A stretch of DNA of 64,000 nucleotides from an uncultured Actinomycetes bacterium (GCA_963755025.1 CAVWIH010000019.1:32001-96000), one strand, 5' to 3'; shown: positions 48,619 through 63,001, numbered from the stretch's first letter. A program made the numbers and translations. The notes: generated by a model not told the origin, from the sequence alone.

Positions 48619-48756
48619 GCGCCCGGCGGCAGGCGCCCCCGCGCCCGCGGCAAAAAGGTTAGAATGCCGTGAGCCAAGCGAGGAGGTGCCTTCCAACAAA
48701 GCATCTGCGACGACGGTCCCAGACGCGCCCGGCAGTGTGAGCTTCGACCATCTTTC

Positions 48757-48902
48757 ATGAGCGCCAGACCCCTCGGCGACCAGTCCGAGAGGTGACGAGG
48801 CGGAGGTTCATCGAAGTCTTCGGCGGATGCCTCCCGGCCCGACACGGTCGTGATCGAACCGACAAACCCCACCGGTAACGGTGGCCACAAAACGGTTCGA
48901 AC
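48757..48902 (+). ncRNA. glmS ribozyme (GlcN6P-activated self-cleaving riboswitch)
   Basis: AGCGCCAG at 48760, P1 hairpin, GACGAGG-CGGAGGUUCAUCGAA..UUCGGCGGAUGCCUCC core, P4 with ACAAA and ccaccg-GUAA-cggugg; directly 5' of glmS; TAGAAT -10 at 48660. Confidence 0.93.
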
Positions 48903-48950
48903 GTGTCGCTCTCACCACCGCGCGCCCGTTTTGAAGCGAAGCGAGGTCCC

Positions 48951-50782
<1,832 letters not shown>

Positions 50783-54686: not shown

Positions 54687-56193
54687 ATGCTCGATACCCA
54701 CGCCATCGCCGCCGCCGCCGCGCCGGCCGCCGCCGCGAGCGGCGGCGCCTGGCTCGTGGGCGGCGCCGTGCGCGACGGGCTGCTGCACCGCGAGTGCGAC
54801 GACGTCGACTTGGCGGTGGCCGGCGACGCCGAGAGCTTCGCCCGCACCCTGGCCGCGGCGCTCGACGCGCCCGCCTTCTCCTACTCGGAGCGCTTCTCGG
54901 CCTGGCGGATCGTCTGCGAGGGCGGCCACGTCGACGTGACCCCGCTGCGCGGCCCCACCATCGCCGACGACCTGCGCGGCCGCGACTTCACCGTCAATGC
55001 CATGGCACGGGCGCTGGCGCCGGGCGAAGGGGCGGGCGCCGCGGCGGCCGACGCGCCGCCAAGCGCCGCGGCGGCCGACGCGCCGCCAAGCGCCGCGGCG
55101 GCCAACGTGGCGCCGGGCGACCCGGGTGCGGCGTCGGGCGCCCTGATCGACCCCTGCGGCGGCCTCGCCGACCTGCGCGCGCGGCGCCTTGTGGCGTGCG
55201 CTCCGGGCGCCTTCGGCGACGATCCCGTGCGCGTGGTGCGCCTGGCGCGCCTGCGCCACGAGCTCGACCTGACCGTGGCGCCAGGGGTCGAGCAGGCGGC
55301 CCGAGCGGCCGCGGGGCGCCTTGCCGCGGCGAGTCCCGAGCGTCTCGAGCACGAGCTGTCGACCCTGCTCGGTCTGCCCTGCGTGGCGCCGGCCGTTCGC
55401 AGCCTCGCCGACCTCGGCGTCCTCGAGGTCGTGCTGCCCGAGGTGGCGGCCTGTCGCGGCGTCACGCAGAACCCCTATCACCACCTCGACGTCTTCGAGC
55501 ACACCCTCGAGGCGCTCTCGTTCCTTTCGCAGGTCGTGAGCGCGCTCGGCGGCGCGCGCTACCTGGCGGCGCCGGCAGAGTGCGGCCTGCCGGGCGCTCC
55601 CGCCCTGGCGCCGCTCGCCTGGGCGGTGCTGCTCCACGACGTCGGCAAGCCGCTGGCTCGCCAGGTCGACGACCAGGGGCGGGTCATGTTCCTCTCGCAC
55701 GATCGCCTGGGCGAGCAGATCGCGCGCGACATCTGCCGCCGGCTGCGCATGAGCCGGCGGTTCGAGCAGTTCCTCGCCGAGCTGGTGCGCCAGCACCTGC
55801 GGCTCGGCTTTCTGGTGCGCGAGATGCCGCTCACGCGTCGCGCGCTCGTGCGCTTTCGCCGCGACGCGCAGCCCTTCGTCTTCGAAGCCATCGTACTGTC
55901 GCTGGCCGATCGCGTGGCGACCCGCGGCGAGCGCACGCCGCCGCAGTCGCTGGCGCGCCACTTTCGCATAGCGCGCGACGTCTTCGGCGACACGCCCTCG
56001 CCGCCGCGCCGCCTCCTGGGGGGCGAAGAGGTCATGACGCCTGCTGGGGGTGGGGCCGGGCGCCACCGTGGGCCGCGCGCTCGAGGTGCTGCAAGAGGAG
56101 ATCGAGTGTGGCGACGTGGCCACGCCCGACCAGGCGCGCGCGTTCCTGCGCGGCTGGTGGGCGCACGAACAGGAGGGTGCCCGCGATGCCTGA
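54687..56193 (+). CDS. tRNA nucleotidyltransferase/poly(A) polymerase with HD domain; frameshift near 56040
   Basis: LVGGAVRD, DVD, RDFTVNAMA, DDPVR, HHLDVFEHT, LLHDVGKP; stop overlaps the mutM start. Confidence 0.88.
55036..55106 (+). repeat. In-frame 27-bp tandem repeat (~2.6 copies) in the nucleotidyltransferase
   Basis: gcgccgcggcggccgacgcgccgccaa repeated; encodes AAAADAPPS. Confidence 0.8.
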
Positions 56194-57771: not shown

Positions 57772-57999
57772 GTGAACGCGGTCACCCTGTACGGCGTCGT
57801 GGCCGTCACGTTCATGATGCTCATGTACGCGCTCGAAAAGCGCGGCCCCGCCTTCATCGCCGCCTTCGCCCTGGGCTGCGCGCTGTCGAGCACCTACGGC
57901 TTTCTGTCGGGCGCTTGGCCGTTCGGCGTGGTCGAGGGCATCTGGACGTTCGTCGCGCTGCGCCGCTACCTCGCCGTGCGCGCGGAGTCGTCACCCTGA
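57772..57999 (+). CDS. Small conserved membrane protein
   Basis: Three hydrophobic segments, YALE, YGFLSGAWPFGVVE. Confidence 0.75.
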   Translation: MNAVTLYGVVAVTFMMLMYALEKRGPAFIAAFALGCALSSTYGFLSGAWPFGVVEGIWTFVALRRYLAVRAESSP

Positions 58000-58060
58000 C
58001 TCCACGCGAACGGCGCCCCGCGCGCCGCGGGCGCAAAGGCCTCCGCGGCGGCGCGCCGAC

Positions 58061-59374
58061 TCAGCGCGCCTTCTCCCACTTCTGCAGGTAGGCGACCTCG
58101 GCGAGCGTCTTGCCGCCATCGATCTCGCCGCGCAGGCGGTTCTCTTTTTCGAGCACGTCCATGGCGCGGTTGGCGAGCTCGACGGCCTGCGCTCGGGGCA
58201 GCACGATCACGCCGTCGTCGTCGCCCACCACCCAGTCGCCGGGCTCGACCGTCTGGCCGGCGATCGAGACCGGCACGTTGATCTCGCCGAACCCTTTGGG
58301 CTCACCGGCGTTAGCGCTCACGAGGCTCGAGAAGGCCGGGAACCTCATGCGGGCGATCTCGGGGGTATCGCGGATGGCGCCCCACACGACCAGGCCGGCG
58401 AGGCCCTTGACCACGGCGCTGTGCGTGGCGAGCTCGCCCCAGATGGCCGGATAGCTGTTGAAGGCATCGACCACCAGCACGTCGCCCGGGCGGCACTCGT
58501 CGATCGCTTCGACCGGCTTGGCCCAGTCGCCGGGGTAGGTGCGCACGGTGACCGCGGGGCCGCACATGTGGGCGCCGGGCAGCAGCGGCCTGATGCCGTG
58601 CAGCGACGGCTGGCGGTGCCAGGCGTCGGAGATGTTGGCCGTGGAGACCTGCTCGAGGACGCCGCGGATGTCGGCCTCGCCGGCCCGCTTGTAGAGGGTC
58701 GTCTCGATGGCGACGCCGGTGTCGACGGCGCGGCGGATCTCGGCGGCGGCCGCGGTGGCGTCGGCCGCCTTGGTGATGGCGCCGCCCACGACGACGATGC
58801 CGGCGCCGGCCGCCACGGCCGCCGCGGCGGTCTCGGAGTTGATGCCGCCCGCCGCGCTCACGGGAATGGCCACGGCTTCGGCCACGGCGCGCAGCGTGGT
58901 GAAGGGCGCCTCGCCGCGCATCTGCTGGTCGATCGCCGTGTGGATGCCCACGTAGTCGGCGCCCCAGGCCTCGGCCTGCCGCGCCCGGGCGACCGGGTCG
59001 GCGACCTCGATCATGTCGACGATCAGCTTGCAGCCGTAGTTGTGGGCCGCCTCGATGCACTCCTTGATGGTCGAGTCGCTGGCCGCGCCGAGCACGCCGA
59101 CCAGGCCGGCGCCCGCCTTGGCGGCGTACTCGACCTCGATGCGGCCGGCGTCCATCGTCTTCAGGTCGGCGAAGACGAGCTTGTCGGGAAAGGCGGCCTT
59201 GAGCTCGCGCACGGCGCGCAGGCCCTCGGCCTTGATGAGCGGCGTGCCGGCCTCGACCCAGTCGACGCCGCCGGCGACCGCCTCGCGGGCGATCTCGATG
59301 GCGCGCGGCAGGTCGACGAAGTCGAGCGCGACCTGCACGACGACGCGCCCGCCGGTACCCGGTGCGTCGCTCAT
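58061..59374 (-). CDS. hxlA: 3-hexulose-6-phosphate synthase fused to an RraA/HMG-aldolase-like domain
   Basis: HPS motifs QVALD, EAGTPLIK, ADLKTMDAG, HTAID; C-domain STANISDA, GPAVTV, WGE-x20-RD, GDDDGV. Confidence 0.92.
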   Translation of the reverse strand: MSDAPGTGGRVVVQVALDFVDLPRAIEIAREAVAGGVDWVEAGTPLIKAEGLRAVRELKAAFPDKLVFADLKTMDAGRIEVEYAAKAGAGLVGVLGAASDSTIKECIEAAHNYGCKLIVDMIEVADPVARARQAEAWGADYVGIHTAIDQQMRGEAPFTTLRAVAEAVAIPVSAAGGINSETAAAAVAAGAGIVVVGGAITKAADATAAAAEIRRAVDTGVAIETTLYKRAGEADIRGVLEQVSTANISDAWHRQPSLHGIRPLLPGAHMCGPAVTVRTYPGDWAKPVEAIDECRPGDVLVVDAFNSYPAIWGELATHSAVVKGLAGLVVWGAIRDTPEIARMRFPAFSSLVSANAGEPKGFGEINVPVSIAGQTVEPGDWVVGDDDGVIVLPRAQAVELANRAMDVLEKENRLRGEIDGGKTLAEVAYLQKWEKAR

Positions 59375-59826
59375 ACGCCCATCACCTGCACGATCAGCTC
59401 GCGCTGCCGGGGGCGCGCGTCGAAGTCGCAGAAGACGATGGTCTGGTAGCGCCCCAGCGTCGGGCGGCCCGCGACGAAGGGCACGGTGAGCGAGGGGCCG
59501 ACGAGGCCGGCGCGCACGTGCGAGTGGCCGTTGCCGTCGCGCAGGTTGTCGTTGTGCGCGTAGTGGCGGCCGGGCGGCGTGAGCTGGTCGAGCGCCTCCT
59601 GCACGTCGTGCACCACGCCGGGCTCGAACTCGAGGGTGGTGACCGCGCCGGTCGCGCCCGGCACGAAGATCGTCACGGTGCCGTCGTGCAGCCCCGAGCG
59701 GCGCACGACTTCGGCCACCTCGTCCGAGATCGCGATGATGTCGGCGTCGCCGCGGCTGGGGAACGCGATCGTGTCGGTCACGACGCGCACCACGCCTTCG
59801 CGTTCCGTAGCCTGTGTGCCGTTCAC
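59371..59826 (-). CDS. YjbQ (UPF0047) family protein
   Basis: GATGAVTTLEFEPG, Y.HN..DGNGHSHVRA, LGRYQ..DFD.RPR.R; 4-bp overlaps with both neighbours. Confidence 0.9.
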   Translation of the reverse strand: MNGTQATEREGVVRVVTDTIAFPSRGDADIIAISDEVAEVVRRSGLHDGTVTIFVPGATGAVTTLEFEPGVVHDVQEALDQLTPPGRHYAHNDNLRDGNGHSHVRAGLVGPSLTVPFVAGRPTLGRYQTIVFCDFDARPRQRELIVQVMGV

Positions 59827-60850
59827 TGTCCATGACTGTCGCCACGCTGCCTCTCCTTGTCGTGCGATGCCGGCCCGCGGCGCGGGTCCGGCTCGGGTGA
59901 TGTCGTGTACGTCGTCGCGGCCTGCGCCGCCGCGCCGATCGCTACGTTGTCGAGCAGCCGGGTGCTCGCCGAGCCGCACGGCGGCCACGATGAGGTCGTC
60001 GGGGCGCAGGGCGTCGGGGCGCCGCCGGGCGTCGGTCTGGCGCGCATCGTCGGACAGGCGCGCATCTTCGGCCGTGGCGCCGCCGACCGCCGTGAAGCTG
60101 TCGGGGTCGACGACAGCGACGTAGTCGATCGCCAAGCCGGCGGCCTGTAGCTCGTCGGTGACCCTGGCCACGACGGCGGCGGCGCCGTCGGCCGCGACCG
60201 CGCGGCCGGCGGTCAGGGCGCGGTGCAGCCCGGCCGCCTCGGCGCGCTGCGCCGCGCTCAGGTAGGCGTTGCGCGAGCTGCGGGCGAGGCCGTCGGGCTC
60301 GCGCACCGTGTCGACCGCCGCGATCTCGACCGGCAGGTCGAGGTCGGCGACCAGGCGCCGCACGACGGCGAGCTGCTGGGCGTCTTTGCGCCCGAAGTAG
60401 GCGCGGTCGGGGGCGACGATCGTGAACAGCTTGGTCACGATCGTGGCCACGCCGTCGAAGTGGCCGGGCCGCTCCGCCGCCTCGTAGCCCACGGCCGGCG
60501 GACCTTCGACGTGCACGGTCGTGGCGGCGCCCGGCAGGTACATCTCGGCGACCGGCGGGGCGAAGACGAGCGTCGCGCCGGCGCCTGCGGCCAGCGCCAC
60601 ATCGCGGGCTTCGTCGCGCGGGTAGCGCGCGAGGTCGTCGCTGGGGCCGAACTGCGTGGGGTTCACGAAGATCGACACCACGACGGTGGCGCACTCGCGC
60701 GCGGCCGCCGCTATGAGGGCCAGATGGCCGTCGTGCAGCGCCCCCATGGTCGGCACCAGGCCGAGCGGGCGCTCGCCGGCGGCCACGGCCGCGCGCGTCT
60801 CGGCGACCGTGCGCACGACGGCCGTCGGTGACGTGGCGCGCGGCGCTCAC
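59823..60850 (-). CDS. panC: Pantoate--beta-alanine ligase; frameshifts near 60828 and 59965
   Basis: VPTMGALHDGH, SIFVNPTQF, RPGHFDGV, FGRKDAQQ, REPDGLARSSRN, RLLDN. Confidence 0.95.
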
Positions 60851-61736
60851 AGGCGTCCCTCGGGGCGGTCGAGCAGCTCGCGCAGCGTGCGCACCGTGTC
60901 GTCGTCGAGCCGCGGCGCGGCCAGGTGCAGCGCCTGGAGCGAGAGCGAGCGGTAGGTGTCGGCAAAGCGCGGCGCCTGCTCGGCGAGCAGCGCCAGGTGG
61001 GCGCGCACGGTGCCGACGTCGCCGCGCGCCACCGGGCCGGTCAGCGCCTGCGACGGTCCGCGCGCGGCGACGTTGGCGGCGGTGGTGGCCACGAGCGGTC
61101 CGAGCAGGCGGGCGGCGGCGGCGGGCGGCACGCCCGCCGCCGCCGCCATCAGCTCGCCAGCTTCGCTCTGCAGGGCCACGAAGAGGTTGCTCGCCGCCGC
61201 GGCGGCGAGGTGGTAGAGGGGCTTGGCTTCGTCGGCCAGCGCGAAGGGACGGCAGCCGAGGCGTTCGGCGAGCCAGATGCCGAGCTCGACGTCGGCCGGC
61301 GTGTCGCCGGTGACGGCCATCGGCACGCCGCGCAGCACGGTCTCGTCGCCCGGCGCGGCGAAGCTCTGCAGGGGGTGCAGCGAGAGGATGCCGGCCACGC
61401 CGCCGCGCAGCGGGGCGAGCAGGTCGAGCGAGCCCAGGCCGCTCGAGTGGATGGCGACGACCGGGCCGTTCGAGCGGCGTCGCGAGCGCCGCGGCGACGT
61501 CGTGGGCGACGGCCTCGATGCCGTCGTCGGGCACGGTGATCCAGACGACGTCGGCGCGCGCCACGGCGTCGGCCAGCGCGAGGCGGGGAGGGTCGGCTGC
61601 GGGGTCGAGTGGCACGGCCGGCGAGGCGACCACCGCGGACACGGCGATGCCGGCCTGCCTGAGCGACACGACGAGCGTCGCGCCCAGGCGGCCCGGTCCG
61701 ATCACACATACACGCAGCGCTTCGTCGTGGAAGCAA
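60847..61736 (-). CDS. Rossmann-like/DUF2520 protein (PanG-type ketopantoate reductase); frameshifted
   Basis: IGPGRLG, ITVPDD.I, HSSG, SLHPLQSF, K.LYH.AA..ASN, ALTGPVARGD.GTV..H; TTG after an AAGGAG RBS. Confidence 0.88.
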
Positions 61737-61816
61737 GGCGTCGGCTCCTTGGCTGCAGTCCCCCCGTGGCGGGCGGTACCGCGCCGGCCTAACGTCCCGG
61801 CGCACTTTCATGCGGT

Positions 61817-61855
61817 CGTCCTCGTCTCCGGCCCCTGGGGCTCGAAGCGAGGACG
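61817..61855 (-). ncRNA. pan RNA motif-like hairpin in the 5' UTR of the pan operon
   Basis: Minus strand GUCCUCG-CUUCG-A-GCCCCAGGGGC-CGGAG-A-CGAGGAC: stem with one bulged A on each strand incl. GAG; upstream of pantothenate genes. Confidence 0.6.
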
Positions 61856-61879
61856 TCGGGCAAATCATCCAGCATGTGG

Positions 61880-61895
61880 GCGATTGCACAATCGC
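61880..61895. promoter_or_regulatory. Palindrome GCGATTG-CA-CAATCGC over the predicted pan operon start site (candidate operator)
   Basis: Perfect 7-bp inverted repeat immediately downstream of the minus-strand -10. Confidence 0.45.
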
Positions 61896-61896
61896 A

Positions 61897-61926
61897 AGCT
61901 TAGGGGCAGGTGCCCGGCACCGTCAA
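61897..61926 (-). promoter_or_regulatory. sigma70-type promoter of the pan operon (TTGACG-N18-TAAGCT)
   Basis: cgtcaa at 61921-61926 and agctta at 61897-61902 on the + strand. Confidence 0.6.
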
Positions 61927-62041
61927 TTCTGCCGTAGGGACCGCGTGGACAAACGTGCGCGGCCGGGCTGGACGCGAGTGGCTGGCGCGGCCGGCGGAGC
62001 TGGCCACTTGACGCAGCCGCTTCCTCTGATGGAATGGGACC

Positions 62042-63001
62042 ATGAACGGATCCACGATCGGCACAGGAGCCGCGGCCGGCAGCGAGCCCGACGACGGCCT
62101 TCGAGGCCTACGGGCGCTCGATCTCGCCGGGCTGAGTCCCGAAGGCCTGTTCACTCTCCCAAGCACCATGCTCGTCGCCGGCTGGCTGCTTGTGTACCTT
62201 GCGCTGTCGGTCGCGTCGCCGAACTGGGTCGACCGCGGCTGGATCGGCCTCTTGGCGGTCTCCTGGACCCCGGCGTTGGTGGTGGAGTGGCTCTTGCTTA
62301 AACCGCGGCAGGGCTCCTGGACGTCGCGACCCTCGAGGTCGAGCGCGGTCGGGTTGGCGTCGACTGGCGCGCTCGTGGTGCTCTGGATCGTGCTGGGTGT
62401 GGGCATCGGGCGCGCCTTCGTGCCTCCCGGCTTCACCGGCGACGCCAGTTCCTACGACATCGCGTTCGCGGTCGTCGCGGGCGCGGCAGGCAGCTACTAT
62501 GCGGGCGCCTTGGCGTGGCCGCGCAGGTGGTACATGGCCGGCGCGGTAGCGTCGCTGCTGTTCGCCGCGCTGTTCGCCCTGTTCGGCACGTGGATCGCGG
62601 TGCCGTTGGTCGCGGTCGGCGTCGTCGTCTTCGCTCTCGGAGTGCGACGCATCGTACGGGTGGTCCGCGCCACGCCTCGAGCGCGCGCGCCGCGTGCCGG
62701 AAGCGAATGGCAACCCGCCAGCGCGAGTGGCTCTGGCACAACGAGCAGCGACGCCTTTCGCGACATCATGGCGAGCCTGTACCTCGTCGGCACCGCTGAC
62801 GACGTGTACCTCGCGCGCAAGACAGGCTTGAGCTGGCCCGACCTCTGTCGCCACCTGTACTGGCTCGAAGGGTGGGGGTACCTGGCGGCGAACTCGGGGT
62901 ATCGGAGTGGCAGGTTGCGAGTATCTGGCGTGCGTCTGACGCCGTGGGGTCGCGGCGAGTTCGCCGCCTCGCTCGAGCAAGCCGGGGTCGGAGCGGCGTA
63001 G
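62042..63001 (+). CDS. Polytopic membrane protein fused to a C-terminal winged-helix (HTH_34/MarR-like) domain
   Basis: About six hydrophobic segments, then RDIMASLY...LARKTGLSWPDLCRHLYWLE..GYL...RLTPWGR.EF. Confidence 0.65.
   Translation: MNGSTIGTGAAAGSEPDDGLRGLRALDLAGLSPEGLFTLPSTMLVAGWLLVYLALSVASPNWVDRGWIGLLAVSWTPALVVEWLLLKPRQGSWTSRPSRSSAVGLASTGALVVLWIVLGVGIGRAFVPPGFTGDASSYDIAFAVVAGAAGSYYAGALAWPRRWYMAGAVASLLFAALFALFGTWIAVPLVAVGVVVFALGVRRIVRVVRATPRARAPRAGSEWQPASASGSGTTSSDAFRDIMASLYLVGTADDVYLARKTGLSWPDLCRHLYWLEGWGYLAANSGYRSGRLRVSGVRLTPWGRGEFAASLEQAGVGAA

Follow-up and report, generated by a model that had tools for sequence, protein, structure and literature searches.

A candidate PanB-independent ketopantoate synthase: an HPS::RraA fusion encoded in a pantothenate operon of a Thermoleophilia-type actinobacterium

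Gene content of the locus

The DNA analyzed here (the window) is a 64,000-nucleotide stretch from an uncultured Actinomycetes bacterium (GCA_963755025.1, CAVWIH010000019.1:32001-96000). From 61705 to 58061 on the minus strand lies a pantothenate operon, that of an actinobacterium of Thermoleophilia type, in which genes for a PanG-type reductase (DUF2520) and PanC are followed by a module of yjbQ and a gene that fuses HPS to an RraA-like domain (HPS::RraA). Pfam and NCBIfam domains place the four co-directional genes in the order given in a preliminary description of the sequence, and a search agreed with that description that panB, panD, and hxlB are absent from the window. The features are as follows.

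61897..61926, minus strand: possible promoter, TTGACG (61926-61921), 18 nt, TAAGCT (61902-61897); recognized by eye, weak
61880..61895, no strand: 16-nt palindrome GCGATTG-TG-CAATCGC, probably the hairpin of the preliminary description
61729..61856, minus strand: conserved structured 5' leader RNA, candidate cis-regulator without an Rfam family (covariation)
60847..61705, minus strand: PanG-type ketopantoate reductase candidate, start GTG 61705, stop TGA 60849-60847 (Pfam on two pieces)
59823..60850, minus strand: panC (pantoate-beta-alanine ligase), start GTG 60850 overlapping the reductase stop, stop TGA 59825-59823 (Pfam, NCBIfam)
59371..59845, minus strand: yjbQ (UPF0047), stop TGA 59373-59371 (Pfam, NCBIfam)
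58061..59374, minus strand: HPS::RraA-like fusion, 436 aa (437 codons with the ATG counted), its ATG overlapping the yjbQ stop (ATGA) (Pfam, NCBIfam, PDB)

The assembled contig shifts frame in the reductase gene near 61462 and in panC near 60827 and 59964. Public contigs of two to three independent runs are without the single letters at 61461/61463, 60827, 59964, and 59814, and the frame breaks in the operon are therefore one-letter insertions of the assembly; other genes on this contig, groEL and glmS among them, show breaks of the same kind. Among the 4-bp overlaps described earlier, GTGA at 60850-60847 (reductase/panC, after removal of the extra letter) and ATGA at 59374-59371 (yjbQ/fusion) stand. 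The 'GTGA' between panC and yjbQ (59826-59823) is probably an artefact; without letter 59814, the yjbQ start moves to GTG 59845 or ATG 59833.

The first gene carries a Rossmann-like domain (PF10727) and DUF2520 (PF10728, Pfam E 8e-33), which share one frame after correction, as in PanG (Francisella FTT1388-type). Scanned as a separate piece, the N-terminal domain scores 21.7 bits, just below the Pfam cut-off of 23, and PanG activity is assigned here as a candidate. The one extra letter (about 61461-61463) is missing from public contigs, and genome G146 reads through the break site in frame. DUF2520 is linked to PanG in the relevant passage of PMC4572677. The second gene, panC (Pfam E 5.4e-89; TIGR00018, 265 bits vs a cut-off of 212.75), contains two extra letters, at about 60827 (missing in contigs X1 and X2) and 59964 (missing in X1, X2, and X3), and two 86% identical relatives (P0273 and P0274) read its frames joined at both ends. 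The third, yjbQ (UPF0047, E 6.4e-32; TIGR00149, 90 bits vs a cut-off of 67.75), has one extra letter near 59814, missing from public contigs X1 and X18, and its N-terminus lies in a single frame in G146; its likely start is GTG 59845, with AAGGAG ahead of it at 59858-59853, or ATG 59833. NCBIfam labels YjbQ 'secondary thiamine-phosphate synthase' with no primary function assigned, and its closest solved structures are all uncharacterised 'hypothetical' YjbQ proteins (PDB comparison).

Upstream of the operon, the single promoter and pan-type RNA hairpin reported previously were not recovered. A strict sigma-70 scan returned no site in 57900-62300, and distant relatives carry a TTGACC...TACGCT pair about 40 nt nearer the leader. 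No Rfam family matched 61600-62200 at E up to 10, the Rfam pan motif had no match at gathering score in the 64-kb window, and the palindrome at 61895-61880 is not kept in relatives from the same genus or family. The leader RNA is indicated by an alignment of 11 sequences and 30 pairs, in which 97% of cells are paired vs 31-42% with slid partners. Eight pairs change on both sides (reached in 7 of 500 shuffles), and five such pairs lie in helix 1. Besides the single copy in its own genome, a covariance model built on the leader finds just one more, ahead of the same operon in G008 (L018, 70 bits). Letters 61837 and 61727 of this region are missing from public contigs.

The HPS::RraA fusion protein

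The fusion consists of an HPS domain (residues ~10-215) and an RraA-like aldolase domain (residues ~228-425). The HPS half scores 225 bits with TIGR03128, above the HPS equivalog cut-off of 200, and the RraA half 162 bits with PF03737 (cut-off 24.5, E 1.5e-47). Positions 4-429 of the 430 in NF005442 are aligned at 583.8 bits, which is below the curated cut-off of 593, so that the architecture is shared and the equivalog name is not licensed; relatives in the class mostly score 560-592 bits and exceed the cut-off in 13 of 151 genomes. The gene is covered piecewise by public contigs, with no letter listed as left out or put in. No PF02548 (PanB) match was found with Pfam, and the fusion is not a member of the PanB family.

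The nearest solved structures are 9LJ9 (an HPS-PHI, E 5e-59) and 3AJX (E 1e-44) for the HPS half and 3NOJ (E 2.3e-27) for the RraA half. Residues E40, D69, K71, D74, H144, D148, R334, and D335 are invariant across nine full-length relatives (43-51% identity); the first six match E, D-x-K-x-x-D, H, and D, which we take to be the catalytic residues of the OMP-decarboxylase suprafamily. The E-x20-R-D motif noticed earlier is present at its spacing (E313...R334-D335), with E or G at the first position in relatives. The Arg-Asp pair at the metal/pyruvate site of the HMG/CHA aldolase 3NOJ, R123-D124, has R334-D335 as its counterpart in the alignment. Of the operon's genes, the fusion is the best conserved within the genus (92-95% identity vs 66-69% for PanC), which suggests a role not made redundant by PanB.

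Distribution of the fusion and panB

The preliminary description called the locus panB-less and proposed that the fusion replaces PanB. The first holds for the operon and fails for the genome, in which a genome search found panB on another contig (G000:C28:~88973-89800). The second agrees with the comparative profile and the gene slot after panC given below, and is at odds with the panB retained here: since both genes are present here and in 12 more genomes of the class, nothing is 'replaced' in them.

Among 151 genomes of the class, a full-length fusion is present in 67, all in three families (f1, f4, and f6), panB over its cut-off in 94, and both in 13, which leaves 54 of 67 fusion genomes without panB. 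Families lacking the fusion have panB in all 76 genomes, family f6 has it in 0 of 24, and it is present in each of the five f1 and f4 genomes that lack the fusion (G050, G062, G110, G022, and G046). The only one of 147 panC genomes without both panB and a full-length fusion is G060, which has a fusion fragment at a contig end next to panC. All but one of the 12 other genomes with both genes belong to f1; elsewhere both are also found in G333 and G151.

Gene order in the class follows the same division. In all 20 fusion-less genomes compared by hand, the gene immediately after panC, on the same strand, is panB, and in f1 and f6 that slot is held by (panD-)yjbQ-fusion. In f4, a full-length PanG-type reductase gene directly precedes yjbQ and the fusion, convergent with panC. 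Throughout the Actinomycetota loci the yjbQ-fusion module is linked to panC, panD, or the PanG-type reductase; outside this phylum, the fusion is within 8 kb of panC in 0 of 60 loci.

The 151 Planctomycetota genomes include 51 with the fusion, 90 with panB, one with both, and 11 with neither. panB is absent from 50 of the 51 fusion genomes vs 11 of the 100 others, panC is present in all 51, and six genomes have panC without panB or the fusion. In a Desulfobacteria-like class (121 genomes), panB is absent from 5 of 5 fusion genomes vs 6 of 116 others. Fusion genomes of about ten other phyla, a set of 50 picked by fusion presence, have panB in 1 and panC in 42. Related genomes within these counts are not independent. 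The phylogenetic profile, which had been suggested as a check, comes out strongly in favor of the proposed replacement, with near-exclusive occurrence of fusion and panB in three independently sampled clades that keep panC. The fusion had a match in only one of 14 control genomes, Methanosarcina acetivorans, in which panB had no match. Four of five fusion-positive, panB-negative genomes examined have SHMT, so that folate C1 metabolism is not lost along with panB.

The partner of the fusion differs between groups. PHI directly neighbors it in 18 of 80 loci, and 37 of the 50 fusion genomes of other phyla have a PHI gene, whereas in the class studied here yjbQ takes the place that PHI holds elsewhere. 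In 27 of the 80 loci yjbQ is transcribed together with the fusion, and a 28th copy (L043) lies close by in the opposite orientation. None of the 151 class genomes gave a PHI match at E<=1e-15, and the best PHI match in the present genome scored 29.4 bits vs a cut-off of 160 (the genome is 84% complete; completeness figures cover only genomes before G151).

Proposed function and alternatives

Because the fusion occurs almost only where PanB is missing, in several unrelated groups, it may be an unrecognized PanB replacement. We lean, with some reserve, toward the fusion being a PanB-independent ketopantoate synthase, a candidate assignment in which all chemical steps are inferred. The HPS half would hold or release formaldehyde as hexulose-6-phosphate (Hu6P <-> Ru5P + HCHO), and the metal-dependent, RraA-like class II aldolase half would add it to the C3 enolate of 2-oxoisovalerate, for a net reaction of Hu6P + 2-oxoisovalerate -> Ru5P + ketopantoate. 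Ketopantoate would then be converted to pantoate by the reductase and to pantothenate by PanC. Type II metal-dependent aldolases including KPHMT are described as joining 2-oxoacids, also C3-branched ones, with free formaldehyde (PMC7611260, in the passage concerned). The 2-oxoacid used by the fusion could instead be pyruvate.

In most phyla Hu6P would come from fructose-6-P via PHI, and in this class, where no PHI was found, via the co-transcribed YjbQ, or free formaldehyde would be used. The 'sugar-derived formaldehyde' of the preliminary description does not carry over to this organism, since with no PHI found in the class, though it is a neighbor in other phyla, this step is without a known enzyme. 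If reverse RuMP were the main pentose route, the formaldehyde flux would, we infer, far exceed the need for ketopantoate. For the present genome the proposal implies two coexisting ketopantoate routes, PanB and the candidate fusion.

The best-surviving alternative, which we judge unlikely, is that the fusion is a RuMP-type enzyme only, serving pentose-phosphate synthesis or formaldehyde handling. The RraA-like half would then add formaldehyde to pyruvate (giving 4-hydroxy-2-oxobutanoate) or decarboxylate oxaloacetate, inherited gene order would account for the pan linkage in Actinomycetota, and panB-less genomes would obtain ketopantoate by another enzyme or by salvage. The association with PHI (18 of 80 loci, 37 of 50 genomes) agrees with this, as do the lack of panC linkage outside Actinomycetota, the strong conservation of the fusion even alongside panB, the pyruvate aldolase 3NOJ as nearest solved relative, and the measured HPS activity of a homologue from archaea that the relevant part of PMC5241800 assigns to a pentose/RuBisCO pathway. 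It leaves unexplained why panB is missing from genomes that have the fusion and keep panC (50 of 51, 5 of 5, and 54 of 67), why fusion-less members of fusion families have panB, and why the module is found where panB would stand after panC, or following the PanG-type reductase; with no PHI found in 151 class genomes, a RuMP role would also be without its partner here.

It is quite improbable that the real PanB analogue is a co-inherited YjbQ, PHI, or unlinked gene and the fusion merely a lineage marker. Co-transcription of yjbQ in 27 of 80 loci and the lack of an assigned primary function for YjbQ would fit, but the fusion is the sole component common to all sampled panB-less lineages, its preceding neighbor varies (18 loci have PHI there, 28 have yjbQ, and the others have neither), and further YjbQ-family copies occur elsewhere in genomes with or without PHI. 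That the RraA-like half is a protein regulator (RNase E inhibitor), as suggested by the Pfam family shared with E. coli RraA (PF03737) and the NCBIfam name 'hexulose-6-phosphate synthase/ribonuclease regulator', is scarcely credible given scores far below the RraA equivalog cut-offs (64.8 bits vs 136; 26.1 vs 241), a far better PDB match to 3NOJ than to E. coli RraA (1Q5X, E 1.7e-6), the invariant R-D pair, and the presence of the fusion in archaea too.

The broader form of the ketopantoate synthase proposal, that HPS::RraA with PHI or YjbQ is a widespread methylene-tetrahydrofolate-independent ketopantoate synthase that uses Hu6P as hydroxymethyl donor and has displaced PanB, is put forward tentatively, at slightly under even confidence. 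If true, PanB has been displaced in Thermoleophilia, many Planctomycetota (including anammox lineages), Desulfobacterota, Omnitrophota, and others, probably also methanogens, and YjbQ is a non-homologous substitute for PHI.

Comparison with known systems

The HPS-RraA architecture is already known (NF005442); what is new, if the assignment is right, as we think slightly more likely than not, is the role of PanB substitute. PanB (KPHMT, EC 2.1.2.11, PF02548) forms the same product, ketopantoate from 2-oxoisovalerate and a C1 unit, and resembles the fusion in its metal-dependent enolate chemistry (proposed for the fusion), its gene slot after panC, and its complementary distribution. It differs in having no sequence relationship to the fusion and in its C1 donor, methylene-tetrahydrofolate rather than the proposed formaldehyde or hexulose-6-P, and a true panB is also present in this genome. 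Ketopantoaldolase is EC 4.1.2.12, and its overall reaction is that proposed for the fusion. We know of no gene assigned to it, and a full-text search of openly accessible article texts returned no paper with the term 'ketopantoaldolase' or 'ketopantoate aldolase'.

HPS-MenG proteins (NF005442, PRK07028), such as Mhun0647 of Methanospirillum hungatei, have the same two-domain architecture and align end to end with the fusion, which is 9 bits under the NCBI naming cut-off and differs in its setting, after yjbQ in a pantothenate operon and within a class for which no PHI was found. HPS activity is reported for Mhun0647, with the second domain called 'unknown', in the relevant passage of PMC5241800, which also describes a Fae-HPS fusion. 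In archaeal Fae-HPS and HPS-PHI, HPS is likewise fused to an enzyme that takes or supplies formaldehyde or hexulose-6-P, and the formaldehyde transfer proposed here is likened to the passing of formaldehyde to a second domain in Fae-HPS; in the present fusion, the place of Fae or PHI is taken by an RraA fold of the aldolase type. Among solved structures, the C-terminal half comes closest to the HMG/CHA aldolase of Pseudomonas putida (3NOJ), an RraA-like class II pyruvate aldolase / oxaloacetate decarboxylase, and differs from it in being fused to HPS; the fusion family has an invariant G-D-W-x-K-x-V (G281, D282, W283, K285, and V287) where 3NOJ has G-D-N-W-M-F-H.

Gene organization and assembly

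The assembly that holds the window (G000) is 3.37 Mb in 39 contigs with a G+C content of 72%, and is 84% complete and 5% contaminated. The names carried by near-identical proteins and loci put it in the Thermoleophilia (Actinomycetota). The features discussed here are as follows.

61705 to 58061, minus strand: operon of four co-directional genes, encoding a candidate PanG-type ketopantoate reductase, PanC, YjbQ and a two-domain HPS::RraA protein (the fusion)
61729-61856, minus strand: structured 5' leader, 128 nt, conserved in 11 family members
48749-48910, plus strand: glmS ribozyme (97 bits)
48951-50779, plus strand: glmS, preceded by the ribozyme and spanning three frames in the assembly
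54747-56160: further broken coding stretch
C19:97736-98925: further broken coding stretch, beyond the window on the same contig
C19:103029-103480: further broken coding stretch, beyond the window on the same contig
C19:104063-105641: further broken coding stretch, beyond the window on the same contig

The reductase matches DUF2520 (E 8e-33) and, through a 78-residue N-terminal piece, a Rossmann-like domain at 21.7 bits, just missing the cut-off of 23. A search for PanE/ApbA gave only a weak match (25.7 bits). PanC (PF02569, E 5.4e-89; TIGR00018, 265 bits, cut-off 212.75) and YjbQ (PF01894, E 6.4e-32; TIGR00149, 90 bits, cut-off 67.75) were identified, and the fusion, 436 residues with an HPS domain and an RraA-like domain, matches TIGR03128 (225 bits, cut-off 200) and PF03737 (E 1.5e-47).

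As assembled, the reading frame shifts in the reductase near 61462 and in panC both near its start and 50 codons before its end. The preliminary description does not mention these breaks, which sequence comparisons show to be one-letter insertions of the assembly; pseudogenes are ruled out by public contigs, by relatives that read through, and by other genes broken alike. In public contigs from independent runs, 92-99% alike to the window, single letters are missing at 61461/61463 (runs X3, X1), 60827 (X1, X2), 59964 (X1, X2, X3) and 59814 (X1, X18), as are two letters of the leader, 61837 and 61727 (X2, X18); for the fusion gene, which these contigs cover piecewise, neither a missing nor an extra letter is listed. 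X18 is an RNA-library run whose contigs span parts of the operon, which is not proof of transcription. The same-genus genome G146 has panC in one frame and likewise the site of the reductase break. Two PanC proteins (P0273 and P0274, 86% identical) begin VSAARH... at the GTG overlapping the reductase stop and finish ...RLGETRLLDNVAIG...DSHGQ, and their ends equal the panC frames of the window joined exactly. The genes for GroEL, GlmS (twice) and the CCA-adding enzyme and two more genes of contig C19 are split likewise, with about six breaks in ~14 kb of non-pan coding sequence on that contig, and many one-letter insertions occur assembly-wide (~0.4 per kb of coding sequence). The gene meant as a gauge of assembly errors, rpoB, is absent from the assembly. 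Every gene call in G000 needs frame-aware reading. With the extra letter at 59814 taken out, yjbQ probably starts at GTG 59845 (after AAGGAG 59858-59853) or ATG 59833, and the GTGA between panC and yjbQ is therefore probably an artefact; the two other 4-bp overlaps of the preliminary description, GTGA 60850-60847 and ATGA 59374-59371, stand.

The fusion protein

Over its whole length the fusion matches NCBIfam NF005442, 'bifunctional hexulose-6-phosphate synthase/ribonuclease regulator', at 583.8 bits, 9 below the curated cut-off. The closest solved structures to the HPS half are 9LJ9 (E 5e-59) and 3AJX (E 1e-44), and E40, D69, K71, D74, H144 and D148 of this half are kept in 9/9 full-length relatives (43-51% identity). 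For the RraA half the best match is 3NOJ, an HMG/CHA pyruvate aldolase (E 2.3e-27), with E. coli RraA well behind (E 1.7e-6), and R334-D335 align with R123-D124 of 3NOJ. HPS activity has been measured for an archaeal HPS-MenG, and its second domain is given as of 'unknown' function (PMC5241800). Metal-dependent type II aldolases, KPHMT included, accept free formaldehyde for addition of 2-oxoacids, C3-branched ones among them (PMC7611260). Within the genus, the fusion is the most conserved product of the operon (92-95%, PanC 66-69%), and its lead over PanC hints that it does more than duplicate PanB.

A second, stand-alone RraA-like gene is present in the genome (G000:C14:38215-38805, minus strand), matching the C-terminal half of NF005442 at 136.8 bits. 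Five divergent fusion-like proteins (P0190, P0195, P0199, P0210, P0222), 24-28% identical, have lost the R-D pair along with several of the HPS residues; they may be inactive or new in function.

Distribution of the fusion and panB

Within the class Thermoleophilia, 151 genomes were searched for the fusion (full length, E<1e-100), panC, panB and PHI (6-phospho-3-hexuloisomerase, hxlB). The full-length fusion is found in 67, namely 23/26, 23/25 and 21/24 members of three families (f1, which includes the genus of G000, f4 and f6, respectively) and 0/76 members of other families. A panB gene over the cut-off is present in 94: all 76 genomes of the fusion-less families, 15/26 of f1, 3/25 of f4 and 0/24 of f6, and every f1 or f4 genome without the fusion, five in all (G050, G062, G110, G022, G046), carries panB. 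Both genes occur together in 13 class genomes, the genus of G000 included, with panB unlinked to the fusion. PanC is encoded in 147/151, and 54/151 keep panC with panB not seen. Three genomes have neither panB nor the fusion, two of which (G066, G132) are also without panC and the third of which (G060) has a fusion fragment at the end of its panC-bearing contig; thus no panC genome in the class is without both.

The preliminary description spoke of a panB-less operon. The genome itself is not panB-less: a search located panB on another contig of G000 (PF02548, G000:C28:~88973-89800), where the match spans three frame changes; panB lies in one frame in 3/3 same-genus genomes.

Gene order follows the same division. 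In 20/20 fusion-less class genomes compared by hand (G063, G135, G147, G015, G051, G057, G129, G111, G099, G003, G009, G123, G021, G105, G017, G005, G089, G107, G013, G133), panB sits downstream of panC in the same orientation, at a distance of at most 80 nt in 16 and 450-530 nt in 4. The operon order is reductase-panC-yjbQ-fusion in f1 and panC-panD-yjbQ-fusion in f6, and in f4 a unit of a full Rossmann+DUF2520 gene, yjbQ and the fusion is convergent with panC. No panD was found in the 84% complete G000. In f4 (L021:12234-13337 and L025:8946-10340, both minus strand), a Peptidase_S58 (DmpA-type) gene lies ahead of panC, and in one genome a class-III aminotransferase gene separates panC from the fusion; both might provide beta-alanine where panD is absent.

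At least 598 fusion-encoding loci came out of a pattern scan that took one genome per species; they are spread over Thermoleophilia, Desulfobacterales/Desulfobaccales, Planctomycetota including anammox lineages, Omnitrophota, Elusimicrobia, Poribacteria, Altiarchaeales, Nitrososphaerota and others. Among 50 genomes from other-phylum loci, a set picked by fusion presence in which G153 and G156 are still Actinomycetota-type, 1 has panB and 42 have panC, and 41 keep panC with panB not seen; because it was chosen by the fusion, this set needs unbiased controls. In an even sample of 151 Planctomycetota (six of which recur from the 50), 51 carry the fusion, 90 panB and 143 panC; a single genome (G333) has both the fusion and panB, 11 have neither, and 56 keep panC with panB not seen. 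All 51 fusion genomes have panC, and the 143 panC genomes divide into 50 with the fusion only, 86 with panB only, 1 with both and 6 with neither. Among 121 genomes of the class around G160 (one shared with the 50), 5 have the fusion and 110 have panB, and the 11 panB-negative genomes include all 5 with the fusion. Of 14 named control genomes, only Methanosarcina acetivorans matched the fusion, and it gave no panB match. The anti-correlation between the fusion and panB anticipated in the preliminary description is seen in Thermoleophilia, Planctomycetota and the G160 class, in profiles that count relatives as if they were independent and include many incomplete genomes. Recurring in three phyla, with exceptions inside families, this pattern looks like non-orthologous displacement. 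Serine hydroxymethyltransferase is present in 4/5 fusion-positive, panB-negative genomes tested, so panB has not been lost together with folate one-carbon metabolism as a whole.

PHI and YjbQ as partners

PHI is the immediate neighbour of the fusion in 18/80 loci (L041, L044-L046, L048, L050, L051, L055, L057, L058, L060, L064, L065, L068, L072, L083, L104, L106) and is encoded in 37/50 genomes of the fusion-chosen set. A PHI step in the organism itself, part of the preliminary description, did not hold up: in the 84% complete G000 no score exceeds 29.4 bits, where the cut-off is 160, and PHI was found in 0/151 genomes of the class. There, yjbQ lies directly before the fusion; outside the class loci, yjbQ is linked to the fusion at L066, L067, L070, L086, L043 and L049. 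Of the six yjbQ-linked genomes in the 50-genome set (G153, G156, G167, G168, G169, G183), none has PHI, and in no PHI-holding genome is yjbQ next to the fusion; YjbQ and PHI are therefore mutually exclusive in the same place. Anywhere in the genome, the YjbQ family is found in 4/5 PHI-less vs 5/5 PHI-holding fusion genomes, so its mere presence is uninformative here. Going by the positional pattern, YjbQ may be the source of hexulose-6-P in genomes that have no PHI, replacing 6-phospho-3-hexuloisomerase without being homologous to it.

Anammox-type fusion loci have PTPS and McsA/McsB-like genes as conserved neighbours, with no evident link. In a Poribacteria genome, a serine hydroxymethyltransferase gene (G173:C1:3575276-3576403) is ~1 kb downstream of the fusion (L075) on the same strand.

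Proposed role

Coenzyme A is made from pantothenate, and PanB is credited with the first committed step of pantothenate synthesis. Methanogens have long been noted as having no recognisable enzyme for this step. We lean slightly towards the fusion being a PanB substitute, in which the HPS half would release formaldehyde or hold it as hexulose-6-P, the aldolase half would add formaldehyde to 2-oxoisovalerate, and the PanG-type reductase and then PanC would complete the pathway. The phylogenetic profile and gene order strongly back this centre of the preliminary description, whereas its details of panB, PHI and the RNA motif were wrong. Against PanB substitution, besides the conservation of the fusion within the genus, 13 class genomes including G000 carry both panB and the fusion, and pan linkage is limited to one phylum: panC was not found within 8 kb of the fusion at any locus examined outside Actinomycetota. 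It is possible that the fusion is instead a pyruvate-specific, formaldehyde-scavenging aldolase of a reverse RuMP route, but this would leave the panB pattern unexplained.

The fusion family is already known, and a role in pantothenate synthesis is new to the searchable literature: full texts, subscription journals and supplements aside, held no link of the fusion or of RraA-like aldolases to ketopantoate. If PanB substitution is true, it would explain what the 'unknown' half of HPS-MenG does and supply a gene for the reaction of ketoisovalerate and formaldehyde to ketopantoate, with a sugar phosphate instead of folate as the one-carbon carrier. It would also correct false calls of vitamin B5 'auxotrophy' in metabolic models of uncultured anaerobes and provide the first physiological lead for YjbQ.

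Upstream region and leader RNA

A strict sigma-70 promoter scan returned no site upstream of the operon; TTGACG-N18-TAAGCT at 61926-61897 was read by eye. Within 600 bases around the operon start no Rfam family matched (E up to 10), and relatives do not share the 61895-61880 palindrome, so the pan-type RNA hairpin first described here is not supported. The 128-nt leader, found before the reductase-panC-yjbQ-fusion operon of one Thermoleophilia family, has a consensus of 30 pairs in which 97% of cells are paired vs 31-42% with partners slid. Eight pairs change on both sides, five of them in the first helix, and 7/500 shuffles reach eight. Besides the window, it occurs at L018:7878-7993, L022, L023, L028-L031, L033, L034, L036 and L103; the L018 copy, ahead of the same operon in G008, is the one further copy returned by the covariance model, which had no match in f4 or f6 loci and a single copy in G000. 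With consensus pairing and covariation but no Rfam match, this is a structured leader and not the known pan motif, and it is a candidate for a new cis-regulatory RNA of pantothenate genes.
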